IMG/VR virus record: IMGVR_UViG_3300024345_000775
Coordinates: 1-25,143 of that record
Origin: a virus
Taxonomy: Duplodnaviria; Heunggongvirae; Uroviricota; Caudoviricetes
Reading direction: 5' to 3' (one strand)
Length of the DNA: 25,143 nucleotides
In this document: positions 16,458 through 22,523 of the stretch, piece by piece
Numbering within the stretch: the stretch's first letter is position 1
How the letters are laid out: every line of letters begins with the position of its first letter
The notes under the pieces: generated by a model
What the model saw: the letters and a program-made list of their open reading frames with translations, nothing else
Told to the model about the DNA's origin: nothing
The model's database searches: none
Translations under genes and position numbers: made by a program

Positions 16458-16900
16458 AAACTTTTTATAATAGTTATTGCCTGTTGTAATGTTGAACTGT
16501 CATATATCTGAAAATACAAGCAATCTATCTTATTAGCTTCCAAATATCCTCTAAAAAGCTTTCTTTTAATCAGAAACACATCTGTTTCAAATCCTTTGAC
16601 TTCAATAATAATAAGCTTTCCTTTGTAAAAGAAAGTTATATCAGGAGTATAAGTTATAGGTAAGACTTTCTTATCTTGTAATTTAAGTACTCCTAATTTC
16701 TTATCTCTATCAAAGAATTTAACAGAAGGTTTAAATCCATTCCAAATGATGAATTTAGTTTGTTCATACTCAGGATTAAATCCCCCCTCTTGGAGAGCTT
16801 TAAACACTCTTACCTCAAGGAGGGATTTAAATTGAATTCCTGAATACATTTTAGCAACAGCATTTTTGACTTTCTTATTAACCTTATGTCTAGTGGGCAT
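16454..16900 (-). CDS. Small PD-(D/E)XK endonuclease (DUF1064/resolvase-like), 148 aa
   Basis: GIQFKSLLE, ITYTPDITF, IIEVKGFETDVFLIKRKLF. Confidence 0.78.
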   Translation of the reverse strand: MPTRHKVNKKVKNAVAKMYSGIQFKSLLEVRVFKALQEGGFNPEYEQTKFIIWNGFKPSVKFFDRDKKLGVLKLQDKKVLPITYTPDITFFYKGKLIIIEVKGFETDVFLIKRKLFRGYLEANKIDCLYFQIYDSSTLQQAITIIKSL

Positions 16901-17594
16901 TGTTATATTTCAAATCAAAAGCTGCTAAGAGTCTATCTCTGATAATCCTGTTGCAATTAACATTCAAATCAAACATAGAATCTCTTTTTAATACTTTAGT
17001 TGGCAATACTAAAAAGTCAGTTATGTTCTTACTAACAATTAAGTTTGGTTGAACATCATCCTCATTTTCAGTAACAATGTCATTTGATGCTAGAAAGGCA
17101 AAAACTTTTCCTGTAAGCATCTTATCAAAATCATCAGGGTTATGATAAAGTTCACTGTTTACATAAACAGTTATATCTTTACTCTGATGCTTGATAGTAT
17201 ACATTAACAGTATATTAAGGTTTGCATCAAGAATAATTCCTGGTGCAACATAATACCTTTTATCATTCAAAGTAACTGCTACTAATCTTCTATAAGGTTG
17301 ATACTTATTATTCATATAAGTAAGTAAAGAAGTTTTAGCAGCAACTTTTATAGGTACCTCATCTGAGAATGGCACATTGATAACATATTCCATTCTATCA
17401 TTATCTCTCTTGGAACCAAGCCAAGTACGATAAAGAAAGAGTGGAATTTCAACATCACCATTTGTAAGTTTCATTACTTTGAAGTACATAGAACTTTGAT
17501 GAGCTATTCTAAAGATATTATCACAATTAGTTTGATTGTCTAACTGTCCAGCATATTTGTAACATTCTGCCAGATTTCTCTCAAACTGTGTCAT
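16890..17594 (-). CDS. Hypothetical protein, 234 aa, translationally coupled to the E1/ThiF gene (ends at TAG)
   Basis: ATG overlaps the E1 TGA (ATGA). The TAG at 16890-16892 is followed by ACA-TAA. No family motif recognised. Confidence 0.75.
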   Translation of the reverse strand: MTQFERNLAECYKYAGQLDNQTNCDNIFRIAHQSSMYFKVMKLTNGDVEIPLFLYRTWLGSKRDNDRMEYVINVPFSDEVPIKVAAKTSLLTYMNNKYQPYRRLVAVTLNDKRYYVAPGIILDANLNILLMYTIKHQSKDITVYVNSELYHNPDDFDKMLTGKVFAFLASNDIVTENEDDVQPNLIVSKNITDFLVLPTKVLKRDSMFDLNVNCNRIIRDRLLAAFDLKYNNAH

Positions 17595-19024
17595 ACCCTT
17601 GTTCTTAAGAATAGTTGGTCTGCTTCATATACTGTTAAAAATGGTAAATCTCTTGGATACAAGATATTACTTTCCCCATTAAAGATAAAGTTAACAAGTA
17701 AGTTATTCATCATTGCACCAATCATAGCAGCACAATAAGAAGTTTGCTTATAAGAGCACAATACTCCATCAGCTTCATCATCTTCAAATAACCACTCAGA
17801 CTCATATCTACTCATAAGGTCATGTCTGTCTCCAGTAATACAGAATACTTGATATTGTTCTGCATTCAATCTACCATCAATAAAGAGACATCTCTCATTA
17901 GGATGACTCTCTGCATATTCTTTCCATTTATAGAAGAATACTTTTCTAGCAACCATATTATCAAAACCACAAACCATAATAGGTCCAACTTGTCTGGTTC
18001 TACCAGTATAGAAACTTTGGAAAGTCTCTATTCTATTATAGTTACAGAAAGTTTGTACTACACTTGCAAGTGCAGCTACTTTGGACATACCAACATGGTC
18101 TATGGAGAATAACTGACCACTAAGATTTGCAGATTCTACAACATCTGCATCAAATAGTTGGATACTTTCAGGGTTAGCTCTTGCTGCTAACAAAGTAAAC
18201 CAACTACCAATACCTCCACATCCAGCAACTATAATTTTAGTTCTTTGCATTGCATCAAACCAAGTTGCTCCACTGAATCTACTACCAATATCAGTAGACA
18301 CTGCATCTACTGGTATATTAGGTATTCTATTATTTTGTACTTCAACAGTTACCTGTGGACCTTGTGCAGGCTGTGCTGCTTCAGGAGCACTTTCGGGAGC
18401 AGCTTCAGCTAGTGCAGCATCATCTGTTGAACTAGCAGCAACACTAGTACCAGCATCAGTTGCAACAGTTTCTTCAATTGCTTGAGACAATTCTCCAAGA
18501 GCTTCAGCTACAGGTTCTGATGCAGCAGCTGCTTCCATAATTCCTTGCGGAATTTGAGGGTCAGCAGAAGCAGGAGCACTTGCATTTACAGTTTGTTCTT
18601 CTGCTGGAGCACTTTCTGGAATCATCTCAACAATAGGAGTAGTTCTACTAGTAAACCTTCTTCTTCTAGTAGGAGCAGTCGCAACTGCTTCTGTAGCAAT
18701 TGTAGTATCTACTGCAATAGCAGGACCAGAACCAGCAACATCTGTTATAAGTGTTTCAGCTGAAACAGCTTCTGCTACTTCTGAAGGAGTTTCTTGTACA
18801 GTATTTTGCTCATTAACAAGTCTGTTAATAGCTTCTGATATACTCTCAGGAGCAGAACCTGAATCTACAGCAGGGCCTTGTGCTAATTGTTGAATATTAG
18901 CAGCTTCAGCTACTCTTGTTGCATAAGCAGCACGAGCAGCCTCAGCTACAGCAGGTAATTCAGCTTCTGGATATAGATTTATAATTTCATCTACACTAAG
19001 TAAAGTAGCATCTATTTCTTCCAT
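17591..19024 (-). CDS. ThiF/MoeB/E1-like adenylating enzyme with a long low-complexity N-terminus, 477 aa
   Basis: From residue ~248: SRFSGATW, IIVAGCGGIGSW (GxGxxG), LFDADVVESANLSGQ, GMSKV, CGFDNMVAR, FIDGRL, and GVLCSYKQT (Cys423, 17756-17758) at the position of an E1 crossover-loop cysteine. Confidence 0.88.
   Translation of the reverse strand: MEEIDATLLSVDEIINLYPEAELPAVAEAARAAYATRVAEAANIQQLAQGPAVDSGSAPESISEAINRLVNEQNTVQETPSEVAEAVSAETLITDVAGSGPAIAVDTTIATEAVATAPTRRRRFTSRTTPIVEMIPESAPAEEQTVNASAPASADPQIPQGIMEAAAASEPVAEALGELSQAIEETVATDAGTSVAASSTDDAALAEAAPESAPEAAQPAQGPQVTVEVQNNRIPNIPVDAVSTDIGSRFSGATWFDAMQRTKIIVAGCGGIGSWFTLLAARANPESIQLFDADVVESANLSGQLFSIDHVGMSKVAALASVVQTFCNYNRIETFQSFYTGRTRQVGPIMVCGFDNMVARKVFFYKWKEYAESHPNERCLFIDGRLNAEQYQVFCITGDRHDLMSRYESEWLFEDDEADGVLCSYKQTSYCAAMIGAMMNNLLVNFIFNGESNILYPRDLPFLTVYEADQLFLRTRV
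18384..18620. repeat. Short dispersed direct repeat (PESAP-coding) in the low-complexity N-terminus of the E1 gene
   Basis: GGAGCACTTTCGGGA (18384-18398) and GGAGCACTTTCTGGA (18606-18620) match at 14 of 15 positions; a related APES motif and two AQGP motifs also recur in the protein. Confidence 0.5.
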
Positions 19025-19025
19025 A

Positions 19026-20528
19026 TTAAGCTAATCTTTCAATTTGGGAGATATAGTGTTTGATATATACATTCTTATTAGACAGTTTGTTCATCTCCTC
19101 TGCAAGTCTATCCATAAACTCATCAGAGAAGTTTTCAATTTCACCTTCCAAACCATCTAACTTATCACTTGCTACTTCATAAATATAATCAACTTGCATA
19201 TCTGCAAATCTCTTAAAATCTTCTAAAGTAGAAAATTGTCTAGAATATACATATCCTGATTGCATAGCCCAAGCTTCATAATCACTATTCAAGTTTGGAC
19301 CATCAATATCTCCAGTTAACAAATAATACATGGCTTTGTCAATCAATGCCTGTATTTCTTCTTCGATTTTCTTGTCTTTTTCTTCATGGTTCTTGGCATT
19401 CTCCTCTTTCATTTCTTGCCTGCAATGGGCCCAAGCAGAACCAGCATCTTCCCAATCAAAATTGAGTTCATCAGGTTCAGAGGGCCCAAGAGGTTCTGAA
19501 GTTACTTTAGGTTTATTTTTATTACCAAGAAGTGAACTAGCTGGTGTAATTACTTCATCAGTATCTTTATCTACCCAGCCTTTACCAGGAATGTAAACTT
19601 GACCTTTAGTTCTTGCAAAGTTTGTTGAAGCAGAAGCACCTGCATAACCACCACCTACACCAGTACCAAAAGAAGGTCTTTGTGCAGTTGGATAACTACC
19701 TGCATAAGGATAACCACTACCATAAACAGGAGTTGTTTTCTTCTTCTTTGCTTCTCTAATATCATCAAGTCTCTTCTTAGTTTCCTCAAATTTAACATCA
19801 GATACACCTCTGATGAGACTATTTACCATATCCTCAACAAAGTTATCTCTAATTTGTACTGCATTGTCAGCAGGTACTTTAGATTTGAGTACTTCCATTG
19901 TGGAAGAAAATGCTTCCTCAAGTTCTTTCTTCAGACTGACTTGAGCTTCATGCTTCTCTACTTCTAGCATGAAATATTCTACAACTGTGGATTGAGTTTT
20001 AACTGGTTCAATATCTCCCAGTTCAACTTCCTTATCATCAAAAGTTTTATATTTGAGTGTACCACTAATTGTCAAATCCTTAACAGCCTTTCTTGTAATT
20101 GCTGCTGTATATGTACCAGCATTATTTACAATAAGAGAAACAAAATGGTTTCTATCTTTACCCTCATCTAAGAGTGTGGAAGTATCTGTTCCACTAAAGA
20201 AAGTTGCCATATTGTTATGGCTATGAATGAGCCCATTATAAACATCAGGGCTAAGTAATTCAGGATGGTCACACATATAACTTACAGCATCAGGAGAGTT
20301 ATCAAACTCAGTGTAAGTTGATGTGCCAATATCCATCGGGAATATATCAACACAAGTGATAACTAAATCACTGTTTTCCATTGTTCCTGCTTTCTTGTAG
20401 AACAAGATTCCTGACCATTCTACTTCATGTACTTGCGCACAAAGGAATCTAATTTTCTCCTCTACATTTTCAGGAACTACTATCTTATATGTAGAGTCTT
20501 GCTTGACTAGAATTAACTTCTCTGCCAT
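19026..20528 (-). CDS. JAB/MPN+ (JAMM) metalloprotease-domain protein with long C-terminal extension, 500 aa
   Basis: E37 in VEWSGILFY, then H102-S-H104-x7-S112-x2-D115 (IHSHNNMATFFSGTD), an exact E-xn-HxH-x7-S-x2-D JAMM motif; followed by HFVSLIVNN. Confidence 0.9.
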   Translation of the reverse strand: MAEKLILVKQDSTYKIVVPENVEEKIRFLCAQVHEVEWSGILFYKKAGTMENSDLVITCVDIFPMDIGTSTYTEFDNSPDAVSYMCDHPELLSPDVYNGLIHSHNNMATFFSGTDTSTLLDEGKDRNHFVSLIVNNAGTYTAAITRKAVKDLTISGTLKYKTFDDKEVELGDIEPVKTQSTVVEYFMLEVEKHEAQVSLKKELEEAFSSTMEVLKSKVPADNAVQIRDNFVEDMVNSLIRGVSDVKFEETKKRLDDIREAKKKKTTPVYGSGYPYAGSYPTAQRPSFGTGVGGGYAGASASTNFARTKGQVYIPGKGWVDKDTDEVITPASSLLGNKNKPKVTSEPLGPSEPDELNFDWEDAGSAWAHCRQEMKEENAKNHEEKDKKIEEEIQALIDKAMYYLLTGDIDGPNLNSDYEAWAMQSGYVYSRQFSTLEDFKRFADMQVDYIYEVASDKLDGLEGEIENFSDEFMDRLAEEMNKLSNKNVYIKHYISQIERLA

Positions 20529-21858
20529 ATTCTATATTAAGTAAATCTATAATCAGTTGAAGGATAGGGCCAGCCCATCTAGGATGCATGATTCTAAATG
20601 CATGATTCTCTTCAACTAATGGAATGTTATCTTCAATTTGGAAAGTTAATGGTTCACCATGAAATATTCCAATTACATGACCAATTTTTGGTACATAACT
20701 TCTCCAAGCATCTCTACTTCCTTGTCTTCTATTTATTAAATGAATTGACTCATTGACCATAGCGGCTTCAACAAGAACAGTTTCTTTAATCATAGAAAGA
20801 CTATCATTAGAGATTCTACTTAAATTGTTAATATAAGTAATAAATGCTTGACTGATGTTAATTAGAAATTCATCATATGTGAATCCAGGTTTGATTTGAC
20901 CATCTAATCTTCTAAATGGTAAGTTGAAACTACTTGCATATTCTCTAATAAAAGGATGAAAATAAGTATTATAAACAGTGCTGTTCATACCTCTAAAATT
21001 CTCCTTGTTAAGAGGAATATTCATTTGTTTTACATTGTTATATCCTAACAGACTACCTTCATTAGTATTACCAGGAATTTGTGACATTCTTATGTATGGA
21101 CCTCCACTAAGAGACTCAACAGAAATATATCTTTCAAGCTCATTACAGAATAACATCCATACATCTAAATCACATACACTACTTAATCTGCTTTCAGTTC
21201 TAATAATAGGACCTGAACCAAGGCAACTTGTAGTCCAATCTCTATCAGGGTCACAAGTACTAGATGGACAATGAGAGTGCATATAACCTATTTGTAACTC
21301 ATTCTTAGTAAAAGTAGTTCTTTTTACAAGGAAGTTACCACAGAACTTTGCATCTTTGGTAAGTGGAATTTTGATATAGAAATTATTAGCTTCATGCTTT
21401 CTTCCATCTTCATTCTCAATAACAACATGTGGGAAGTGAACAATAATCACAAACATAGGATTATTGTTGAAAAATACATTAAGTTTCCTTGTAATATCAG
21501 TTTTGTCTAATGTAACAAGCTTTTCAAAATACTCATTTACTAACTTAGAACTATCCCAATTATTAAAAGTATAATAGTCATAATAACCTCTACTAAGATT
21601 AGGAATATAACTAATATGTCTAGGAGAACAATTTCTCCAAACATATTTTGCAAGTAGTTTTGCATGAGCTTCCTTTGTATTTTCTTTTACAAGTTCAAGC
21701 TCTTCAGCATCATTATATTTATGACTAAATTGCAAATCAACCCTTTGCTCTCCATAATAATCTTGAAATACTTTATATATTTTACCAATATTTTCAGTAT
21801 TCAAGGTATCAATATAAGGAGTTAAAATTTCCTTTTCTAATCGCTCTAAACCTGTCAT
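20485..21858 (-). CDS. Putative prokaryotic E2-like (ubiquitin-conjugating fold) protein, 457 aa
   Basis: GYMHSHCPSSTCDPDRDWTTSCLGSGPI: a His motif followed by a CLG cysteine (Cys212, 21223-21225), then a helix pattern (WMLFCNELERYI) like the post-catalytic helices of E2 folds. It lies between a Ubl gene and JAB/E1 genes. The fold assignment is inference. Confidence 0.5.
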   Translation of the reverse strand: MTGLERLEKEILTPYIDTLNTENIGKIYKVFQDYYGEQRVDLQFSHKYNDAEELELVKENTKEAHAKLLAKYVWRNCSPRHISYIPNLSRGYYDYYTFNNWDSSKLVNEYFEKLVTLDKTDITRKLNVFFNNNPMFVIIVHFPHVVIENEDGRKHEANNFYIKIPLTKDAKFCGNFLVKRTTFTKNELQIGYMHSHCPSSTCDPDRDWTTSCLGSGPIIRTESRLSSVCDLDVWMLFCNELERYISVESLSGGPYIRMSQIPGNTNEGSLLGYNNVKQMNIPLNKENFRGMNSTVYNTYFHPFIREYASSFNLPFRRLDGQIKPGFTYDEFLINISQAFITYINNLSRISNDSLSMIKETVLVEAAMVNESIHLINRRQGSRDAWRSYVPKIGHVIGIFHGEPLTFQIEDNIPLVEENHAFRIMHPRWAGPILQLIIDLLNIEYGREVNSSQARLYI

Positions 21859-21870
21859 ATTCTTAAGATT

Positions 21871-21913
21871 AGAAAATAAAAAGAAGGTTAGGGAGTTTTA
21901 CCTCCCTAACCTT
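21871..21913 (-). terminator. Intrinsic terminator downstream of the ubiquitin-like gene
   Basis: Perfect 12-bp stem AAGGTTAGGGAG (21884-21895) / CTCCCTAACCTT (21902-21913) with a 6-nt loop, followed on the minus strand by CTTTTTATTTTCT. Confidence 0.85.
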
Positions 21914-21923
21914 AAAAACAACA

Positions 21924-22523
21924 TTAGATGCTAGCTACAATAGCATCAATTTCAGACTTGGTATAAGAACCAATCTTCTCATCAACAGATGCTTGGCCAA
22001 TAGAACCAACAACATCATTGTACTGAGAAGTAGTCAGATAGCCGTTATGCTTCAGAGCATCAGCTAACTTCTTCAATGCTACAGCACTACTGCAAGCATT
22101 TTGTGCAGGAGCTGCGGTCTTAGCACTGAAGTGCTTTACAACTGCCTCAAGAACACTAGCACCTACATTGGTGTAGTTTCTACCATAGGTCTTTTGGATA
22201 TAATCCTTCATTGCCTGGCTTGCACCAACAGTTGCTCTAAGAGTTACATAGTCAGTACCAGACTTAATCTTCTTATTTGCTACAGTCAGCAAGAATACCA
22301 GTTCATTAGTGGTGCCTTCACCTCTAACAACATCTCTTGGTAGCAAGCTACTATCATTGAGGAGCTCAGTCTTAGTAAGACCCTCCATGAAGGTCATACC
22401 TTCATAATCAATATGAGCCTCTCTCATATCAGCCTTAAGTTGGCCAAGAGTCTCAGCTGCGGTCTCAAGAGTATATCTTCTGTTAGCTGCATTACTTACG
22501 ATAATCACATTTCTTACTTCCAT
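21924..22523 (-). CDS. Putative ubiquitin-like (beta-grasp) protein, residues 1-89 ending in KKIKSG, fused to a ~110 aa C-terminal extension; 199 aa
   Basis: The secondary-structure pattern fits a beta-grasp fold: strand (RNVIIVS), strand (RYTLET), helix (TLGQLKADMREA), strands (MTFMEG, TEL), LP turn, final strand (ELVFLLT) and a tail ending in Gly89 (22257-22259). It is adjacent to E2-, JAB- and E1-like genes. Confidence 0.6.
   Translation of the reverse strand: MEVRNVIIVSNAANRRYTLETAAETLGQLKADMREAHIDYEGMTFMEGLTKTELLNDSSLLPRDVVRGEGTTNELVFLLTVANKKIKSGTDYVTLRATVGASQAMKDYIQKTYGRNYTNVGASVLEAVVKHFSAKTAAPAQNACSSAVALKKLADALKHNGYLTTSQYNDVVGSIGQASVDEKIGSYTKSEIDAIVASI

Follow-up and report, generated by a model that had tools for sequence, protein, structure and literature searches.

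Does a phage encode its own pathway for attaching a ubiquitin-like modifier (Ubl) to proteins? The question is raised by four consecutive genes in the IMG/VR record IMGVR_UViG_3300024345_000775 (Caudoviricetes), of which we analysed positions 1 to 25,143; this whole stretch of 25,143 nucleotides (nt) is called the window hereafter. Conjugation of Ubls in prokaryotes has so far been described as a bacterial weapon against phages, used by Bil, by CBASS Cap2/3 and probably by Bub, and here the same kind of machinery would stand on the phage side. The four open reading frames (ORFs), all on the minus strand, fill positions 17591-22523 of the window:

21924-22523, minus strand: Ubl precursor, ORF of 199 residues
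20485-21858, minus strand: E2-like protein, ORF of 457 residues
19026-20528, minus strand: JAB/JAMM metallopeptidase, ORF of 500 residues
17591-19024, minus strand: E1-like enzyme, ORF of 477 residues

An earlier note on this DNA, made from the letters alone, had read these genes as a complete conjugation cassette of Ubl, E2, JAB and E1. Its description of the layout is accurate: the genes are co-oriented and tightly joined, with a gap of 65 nt between the Ubl and E2-like genes, an overlap of 44 nt between the E2-like and JAB genes, and a single base between the JAB stop and the E1 ATG. The motifs it named in the E2-like protein (HSH...CLG), the peptidase (JAMM) and the E1 (GxGxxG and a Cys) are likewise all present when checked codon by codon. 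We put it slightly above an even chance that the peptidase releases the Ubl, the E1 activates it, and a Cys of the E2-like protein passes it to targets.

Gene order across relatives

We compared 83 loci: 80 from IMG/VR, those of crAss001 and bajarodcaudo virus, and the window. In 80 of the 83 the genes lie on one strand in the order Ubl, E2-like, JAB, E1, the three exceptions being cut contigs, and the arrangement is therefore not due to chance. The overlap between the E2-like and JAB genes spans 44-68 nt across loci, and the JAB/E1 junction varies between an overlap of 4 nt and a gap of 11 nt, with a single locus outside this range. The cassette is also present in the cultured phages crAss001 and DAC15 and in Flavobacterium phage FpV4. 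The last of these belongs to a separate genus (Fipvunavirus) and has the same gene order, with the motifs KSG, YMHSH...C, HxH...S..D and C-x-x-K-Q-T all kept. Furthermore, matches to the E2-like protein and to the E1 fall in an identical set of 74 among 50,697 phage records. The public label of the E1 in this phage collection is mostly 'thiamine biosynthesis protein'; together with the label 'metalloprotease', this agrees with the earlier remark that ThiF and JAB genes are annotated individually in such genomes. Otherwise the cassette genes carry the label 'hypothetical' in public records.

The Ubl precursor

The first gene of the cassette encodes two parts that meet at a glycine:

22257..22523, minus strand: Ubl domain, residues 1-89, with a beta-grasp at 1-82 followed by a flexible tail, NKKIKSG, ending at Gly89
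21924..22256, minus strand: C-terminal extension, residues 90-199, with a helical domain and, after a variable linker, a conserved acidic tail (from alignment and model)

None of the family-library searches returned a family match for the 199-residue protein. An AlphaFold model built from 23 sequences (predicted local distance difference test, pLDDT, of 78) has strands at residues 4-10, 15-21, 43-47, 65-72 and 75-81 and a helix at 26-35; residues 83-89 are disordered (pLDDT <50), and helices occupy 91-198 beyond them. In comparisons with known structures, Foldseek matched residues 1-85 to ubiquitin, NEDD8, ISG15 and DIX with probability 1.0 and a target template modelling (TM) score of 0.6-0.72, and VIA-align gave Z values of up to 9.2 (about 8 for ubiquitin and about 7.3 for MoaD), with 262 chains at Z of at least 5. 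The beta-grasp assignment of the earlier note is well supported by these matches. Its statement that the protein ends in Gly is not: the chain ends in ...VASI, and the conserved Gly is Gly89 (codon at 22257-22259, in the motif K85-I-K-S-G89). S88 and G89 are invariant across 76 orthologues, whose shared N-terminal block of about 89 residues ends in KKI[K/R]SG. The domain thus combines the fold of a beta-grasp modifier with a flexible tail ending in a conserved but internal Gly. Since about 110 residues of helical extension follow it in the model, the product is best described as a precursor with an internal, putatively reactive Gly, of which a free end would require cleavage. The extension itself carries a conserved acidic tail with the alignment consensus S/T-x-x-E-I-D-x-x-hydrophobic.

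Three loci bear on this architecture. In L015:3556-4857, L071:3643-4856 and L077:3927-4856 the Ubl gene is split just past the Gly of KSG. The N-terminal piece ends with KSG and two further residues and is followed by an HNH-type homing-endonuclease-like ORF, and a separate ORF for the C-terminal piece starts at the Met that, in intact genes, lies 3-4 residues past the Gly. No group I intron was recognised by Rfam where these genes are split, and the split may be either a genuine gene fission or an intron that escapes recognition; either way, the Gly is the seam between two units. The natural fission indicates that the two halves can exist as separate chains.

In one related phage contig, a group I intron lies downstream of the cassette (L015:10061-10304) (Rfam RF00028, 84.8 bits, E 2e-20). 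A free-standing homing-endonuclease-like ORF of 179 residues is inserted between the Ubl and E2-like genes at L004:4330-4869, L021:4332-4871 and L033:4330-4869, and stretches the gap between them, usually 25-90 nt, to 550-600 nt.

The peptidase and the E1-like enzyme

The peptidase has the full JAMM motif (E...HxH-x7-S-xx-D), made of E37, H102-x-H104, S112 and D115. These positions are invariant in 73-75 of 75 orthologues, which places the assignment made from the motif on firm ground. Family models recognise the protein less readily: Pfam Prok-JAB scores 18.3 bits (E 0.0021), under its cut-off of 25 bits, and the PADLOC JAB model gives an E of 0.0032. The JAB domain spans residues ~1-150 and is followed by a Gly/Tyr/Pro-rich stretch and then by a conserved helical C-terminal region. 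The stretch, also rich in Lys, covers about 90 residues (261-350; window 19479-19748), and the protein is about 100 residues longer than most of its orthologues.

The E1 matches Pfam ThiF (PF00899) at 1.1e-15, with 57.8 bits against a cut-off of 28.1, and the PADLOC CBASS E1-E2 models at 1.1e-10. Its sequence matches in the PDB are PaaA, MccB, TcdA and Cap2. The conserved part, residues ~245-477 (nt 17594-18292), is a minimal ThiF-type adenylation domain in which G268-x-G-G-x-G273, D292, D294, K315, D355 and C423-S-Y-K-Q-T are invariant, and the enzyme probably acts as a homodimer. Cys423 is presumably at the end of the crossover loop, where Cys184 of ThiF and Cys250 of UBA5 sit. The proposal of a ThiF/E1 enzyme with a nucleotide-binding GxGxxG and a crossover Cys is therefore sustained by the Pfam match, by the GxGGxG motif and by the invariance of C423. 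The first 240 residues (window 18293-19024) are of low complexity, rich in Ala, Glu, Pro and Thr, with a local G+C of 0.41 against about 0.32; this N-terminus is absent or much shorter in relatives with an E1 of 284-385 residues, the orthologues as a whole measuring 284-477 residues.

In the genome collection, looking for bacterial relatives of the E1 yielded only phage contigs that had been binned into metagenome-assembled genomes. The matches (L084-L093) lie on contigs of 9-111 kb in assemblies labelled Acholeplasmatales, Bacilli, Clostridium, Spirochaetia and even an archaeon, and are most likely misbinned contigs of crAss-like phages.

The E2-like protein

The second gene is the weak link of the cassette, and its product a probable transfer enzyme. 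It belongs to a large family, with 2868 clusters at 50% identity, of which 900 have E <1e-30, and over 150 representatives the residues N149, S195, H196, C212, G214, G216, P217, E248 and S249 are invariant; the motifs that stand out are H194-S-H196 and C212-L-G. We asked whether the protein has a UBC fold in which the loop following the four-strand meander holds the catalytic Cys. A model built from the 150 representatives (pLDDT 86, predicted TM score 0.77) most resembles UBC/UEV/RWD folds over residues ~13-260, where residues 45-131 form a helical insert, and has a further C-terminal domain at 263-457. The modelled fold runs from a helix (21-35) and a strand (40-44) through the helical insert to a three-strand meander (136-184) and two further helices (217-227 and 231-246). 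The loop between the meander and the next helix holds H194-S-H196 and C212, H196 lying 16 residues before C212. As modelled, this topology fits an E2, with C212 in the topologically right loop.

The model was compared exhaustively with known structures using VIA. The 50 best matches are mostly UBC, UEV and RWD proteins, all over residues ~13-260, with Z of 4.8-6.9. They include the UEV domain of Tsg101 (Z 6.9), the RWD domain of GCN2 (6.7), Ubc9 (6.0), Ubc8 (5.9), Ubc13 (5.2), UbcH5 fusions (5.0-5.2), a Citrobacter BubCD-BubB-BubA entry (5.1), Cap2 (4.9) and Atg10 (4.8). Against AlphaFold DB clusters, Foldseek returned weak rows, 'UBC core domain' and 'RING-type' among them, with probabilities of 0.85-0.96. 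A predicted complex between residues 1-262 of the E2-like protein and residues 1-89 of the Ubl scored 0.55, against 0.00 for the best control, with at least 77% of the contacts common to runs and a partner pLDDT of at least 82. Of 80 solved complexes, 58 attain the mark used for such scores, as do 2 of 110 mismatches, but scores of 0.60 or less came from only 7 of the 80 complexes and from both mismatches, so the predicted contact lends the pairing weak support.

Several observations weigh against a pathway that runs through an E2. VIA Z values of 5-7 are in the range that the tool itself calls common, and the fold argument therefore draws on how uniform the list is and not on how high it scores. 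Searches of the E2-like protein and 12 relatives with Pfam, NCBIfam and PADLOC found no E2 family, the 150-sequence profile matched no E2 among PDB sequences, and Foldseek with the model found nothing under an E of 0.2 in the PDB. A profile comparison with hhalign aligned Cys with Cys and Trp with Trp when a single Prok-E2_D sequence was used (probability 0.6%), and the match was gone with an alignment of 8 such sequences (probability 0.2%), made of one gene from 401 Bacillota genomes and seven from plasmids. In the E1, an invariant Gly (N-[M/L]-S-G-Q; window 18116-18118) takes the place of the Arg of NLxRQ in every orthologue examined, where ThiF, MoeB, MccB and PaaA all carry the Arg. Finally, no E3 and no target are known for the cassette.

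The protein that the earlier note took for an E2 is thus a candidate E2. In its favour are a resemblance in fold, at middling Z, the invariance of its His and Cys, and the genes around it; a sequence or profile link to any E2 family does not exist in these searches.

Other identities were considered for this protein. A search of the ESM Atlas by shape returned viral hypothetical proteins only, and a further homologue search found close relatives only, none of them with a Pfam annotation. A lead from Atlas features (scores 0.81-0.86) towards Prok-E2_D was dropped after the profile comparison. A zinc site formed by H194, H196, C212 and C238 was weakened by FpV4, in which C238 is a Leu, and a caspase-like His-Cys dyad was dropped as no such fold appears in the VIA list.

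A proposed pathway and its alternatives

Taken together, the cassette would be a phage-borne pathway for activation and transfer of a Ubl, expressed with the replication (middle) genes. The JAMM peptidase would cut the precursor after Gly89, giving an 89-residue Ubl (...KKIKSG) and a separate helical C-terminal protein. There is precedent for release of a Ubl from a downstream fusion by a JAB peptidase in Bub (PMC11601596) and in Bil (10.1101/2023.09.26.559546). The minimal E1 would then adenylate Gly89 and hold the Ubl as a thioester on Cys423, from which it would be handed to Cys212 of the large UBC-like protein. The extra domains of that protein would select the target. The Ubl would finally be joined to a lysine of one or more phage or host proteins, and the JAMM peptidase may also reverse the joining. 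The relative amounts of the components could be set by a structure in the gap after the first gene:

21874..21913, minus strand: terminator-like hairpin with a 12-bp stem (6 G-C pairs), followed by a T-tract, within the 65 nt that separate the Ubl gene from the E2-like gene

Lying past the Ubl gene, this hairpin may raise the ratio of modifier to enzymes. As to what the pathway is for, we can only suggest, tentatively, that the Ubl tags replisome or host proteins, the C-terminal half being a second replication-linked product, or that it saturates or reverses Ubl-based defences of the host (Bil, CBASS type II, PRTRC-like systems of Bacteroidota).

The main rival is activation without an E2, which we consider possible and rather unlikely. 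The JAB and the E1 would still process and adenylate the Ubl, as in archaeal SAMP/UbaA, Thermus TtuB/TtuC and Urm1/Uba4, and the E1 would then join it directly to targets or make a thiocarboxylate. The 457-residue protein would carry no thioester; it would serve as a target or an adaptor, or be some unrelated enzyme with a His/Cys pair. This would account for the unevenness of the evidence, in which the Ubl, the JAB and the E1 are solid and the E2 call is made on fold only, at middling Z and without a profile match. It also suits the one-domain E1, which resembles the ThiF and UBA5 types, and the top VIA ranks, held by UEV and RWD proteins that are non-catalytic. Yet the Cys/His pair of the 457-residue protein is invariant across 150 diverse representatives, the protein strictly co-occurs with the E1, and the overlap of its gene with the JAB gene is conserved; the predicted contact with the Ubl adds a weak argument in the same direction. 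The partners of a sulfur relay are missing from the record too. Neither a rhodanese nor a NifS-type cysteine desulfurase, PP-loop ATPase/thiolase or ThiG was found in the 89-kb record, estimated to be 46% complete, with searches that each matched 13-14 of 14 control genomes. The absence of sulfur-transfer partners, which the earlier note had used against a cofactor role, thus extends to the whole record and makes a sulfur-carrier role unlikely.

A second alternative, which we regard as improbable, takes the Ubl as a cleavable fusion that mainly aids the folding or the timed release of the acidic-tail protein, like the eukaryotic fusions of ubiquitin to ribosomal proteins. The cut by the JAB would be the main event, and the released C-terminal protein would act in replication beside the primase. 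The conservation of the extension in its helical core and acidic tail agrees with this, as do the position of the Ubl gene about 40 nt past the primase gene in most relatives and the occurrence of the halves as separate genes in three loci. However, it leaves unexplained the co-inherited E1, with its intact adenylation site and invariant Cys, and the E2-like protein, and the tail KKI[KR]SG is conserved beyond the need of a cleavage site. Last, chemistry of the MccB/PaaA type, in which the E1 homologue would modify the C-terminus of a peptide or protein to give a nucleotide-linked or cyclised product instead of a conjugate, is very improbable: among PDB sequences the adenylation domain matches PaaA and MccB best, and the plasmid matches of the E1 in tblastn are mostly E. 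coli ThiF-family genes, but the former span only the generic nucleotide-binding part (residues 257-341), the latter are confined to the generic first quarter of the domain at its N-terminal end, the substrate in this case is a beta-grasp protein of 89 residues and no short peptide, and a JAB and a UBC-like protein are foreign to those pathways.

Genomic context and a fifth gene

The source phage is crAss-like. Among cultured phages its DNA is closest to that of crAss001, DAC15 and related Bacteroides phages, with about 68% identity over parts of the stretch. Near-identical protein relatives sit on contigs of 162-168 kb, and the lineage is therefore probably one of large-genome crAss-like phages. 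The stretch in the window was also found as contigs in sheep and bovine gut metatranscriptome libraries, which is not evidence of expression. Overall, the record points to a large-genome crAss-like phage of ruminants.

The neighbouring genes are those of replication: a primase, DUF3310, a DUF1064 nuclease, a PD-(D/E)XK protein, an anaerobic ribonucleotide reductase, a metallophosphatase and a ligase-like gene. In crAss001 the cassette genes are gp79 to gp75, within the replication block, which is transcribed as a middle module (PMC8375218).

A further gene follows the E1 on the same strand:

16890-17594, minus strand: conserved fifth gene, ORF of 234 residues

Its start overlaps the E1 stop by 4 nt. 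A homologue lies directly downstream of the E1 in 74 of 76 loci, with its start overlapping the E1 stop in 71. The product has no Pfam match and no usable Atlas match. Its invariant residues (F28, P51, Y114, G119, P153, F156, K158, F194, P198 and N215) are mostly hydrophobic residues, Pro and Gly, with one Lys, and include no Cys, His, Ser or Asp. As none of them looks catalytic, the product is possibly a partner, an adaptor or a substrate rather than an enzyme.

Significance

A literature search, with subscription papers on crAss-like genomics outside its reach, found no description of the cassette, in line with the earlier note, which knew of no functional description of it as a complete phage system. 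New here are the list of UBC/UEV/RWD folds, the negative profile test against Prok-E2_D, the evidence of fission at the Gly89 seam and the strict co-occurrence of the E1 and the E2-like protein. If the proposed pathway holds, it would be the first complete virus-encoded pathway of E1, E2, Ubl and deubiquitinase in prokaryotic viruses, with a new E2 family of >2800 sequence clusters. It would also bring in a large UBC-like family so far unrecognised, together with a precursor architecture for Ubls, and would correct the 'thiamine biosynthesis' label on dozens of public phage genomes. The clade in which the cassette is fixed takes in crAss001 and DAC15, both cultured gut phages, as well as phages of fish pathogens in the FpV4 group, which makes the cassette accessible to genetics and biochemistry.

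Comparison with known Ubl systems

The closest likeness in gene order is to BilABCD, which has four parts in the identical order Ubl, E2, JAB peptidase and E1 (Chambers et al., 10.1101/2023.09.26.559546; Hor et al. 2024). There too, prior trimming of the Ubl by the JAB bares a C-terminal Gly, the chemistry is expected to run through Cys, and the E2 is thought to choose targets without an E3. The phage E1 has one adenylation domain of about 230 residues (245-477), with its Cys in the crossover loop, and its low-complexity N-terminus is lacking entirely in some relatives (284 residues), which sets it apart from Bil. BilB is small and recognisable as an E2, whereas the phage protein runs to 430-457 residues, includes a helical insert and a further C-terminal domain, and lacks any match at the sequence level. 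A conserved extension of 110-170 residues is attached to the phage Ubl, and the cassette lies in a replication module with a fifth conserved gene, not in a bacterial defence island.

The precursor architecture is closer to type I Bub (BubAB, BubCD, BubE), in which a Ubl precursor is fused to a sizeable downstream protein and the JAB of the operon cuts after a conserved Gly (Ye et al., PMC11601596). In both, a JAB and a minimal homodimer-type E1 go together as a unit (fused in Bub, coupled genes with a 1-nt gap or a 4-nt overlap in the phage), and a further conserved gene follows. The Bub E2 has a diverged UBC fold, which the phage protein resembles in its model. Bub, however, makes oxyesters, with a Ser in the E2, a Tyr in the E1 crossover loop and no Cys, whereas Cys212 and Cys423 are invariant in the phage proteins. 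The Bub Ubl is fused to the E2 itself and the phage Ubl to an unrelated helical domain; Bub has Ubl-E2 and JAB-E1 fusions where the phage has four separate genes. The fifth gene of the phage has no invariant Ser or His and no match to DUF6527, and is therefore not BubE.

PRTRC cassettes and operons of type 6d (Ubl, Prok-E2_D, JAB, ThiF and an alpha-helical protein; Iyer, Burroughs and Aravind 2006, PMC1779556) share the part set and an association with mobile elements. An operon of this kind on a Priestia koreensis plasmid (L095:1744-7418) has Prok-E2_D, MPN and ThiF genes in the order E2, JAB, E1, immediately following genes for a Rad52-family protein and DnaN; like the phage cassette, it thus sits among functions of replication and repair. 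Prok-E2_D has no His before its Cys and one after it (PMC1779556), whereas the phage protein has His194 and His196 before Cys212. The PF14460 (Prok-E2_D) model has no match in the phage record, and the scores of PRTRC_ThiF (TIGR03736, 26.3 bits against a cut-off of 144.75) and PRTRC_A (TIGR03735, 12.5 bits against 101.8, E 0.078) fall far below threshold.

CBASS type II Cap2/Cap3 uses the same chemistry of E1 adenylation, UBC-like domain and JAB, but Cap2 is an E2-E1 fusion that conjugates a CD-NTase and not a beta-grasp Ubl, and neither a CD-NTase nor an effector lies near the phage genes. The kinship that the earlier note had drawn with prokaryotic systems therefore holds at one level and not at another. 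As it departs from the defining features of Bil, Bub and PRTRC, the cassette is a member of none of them; it is akin to them in kind, built from the same kind of parts as Bil and PRTRC.

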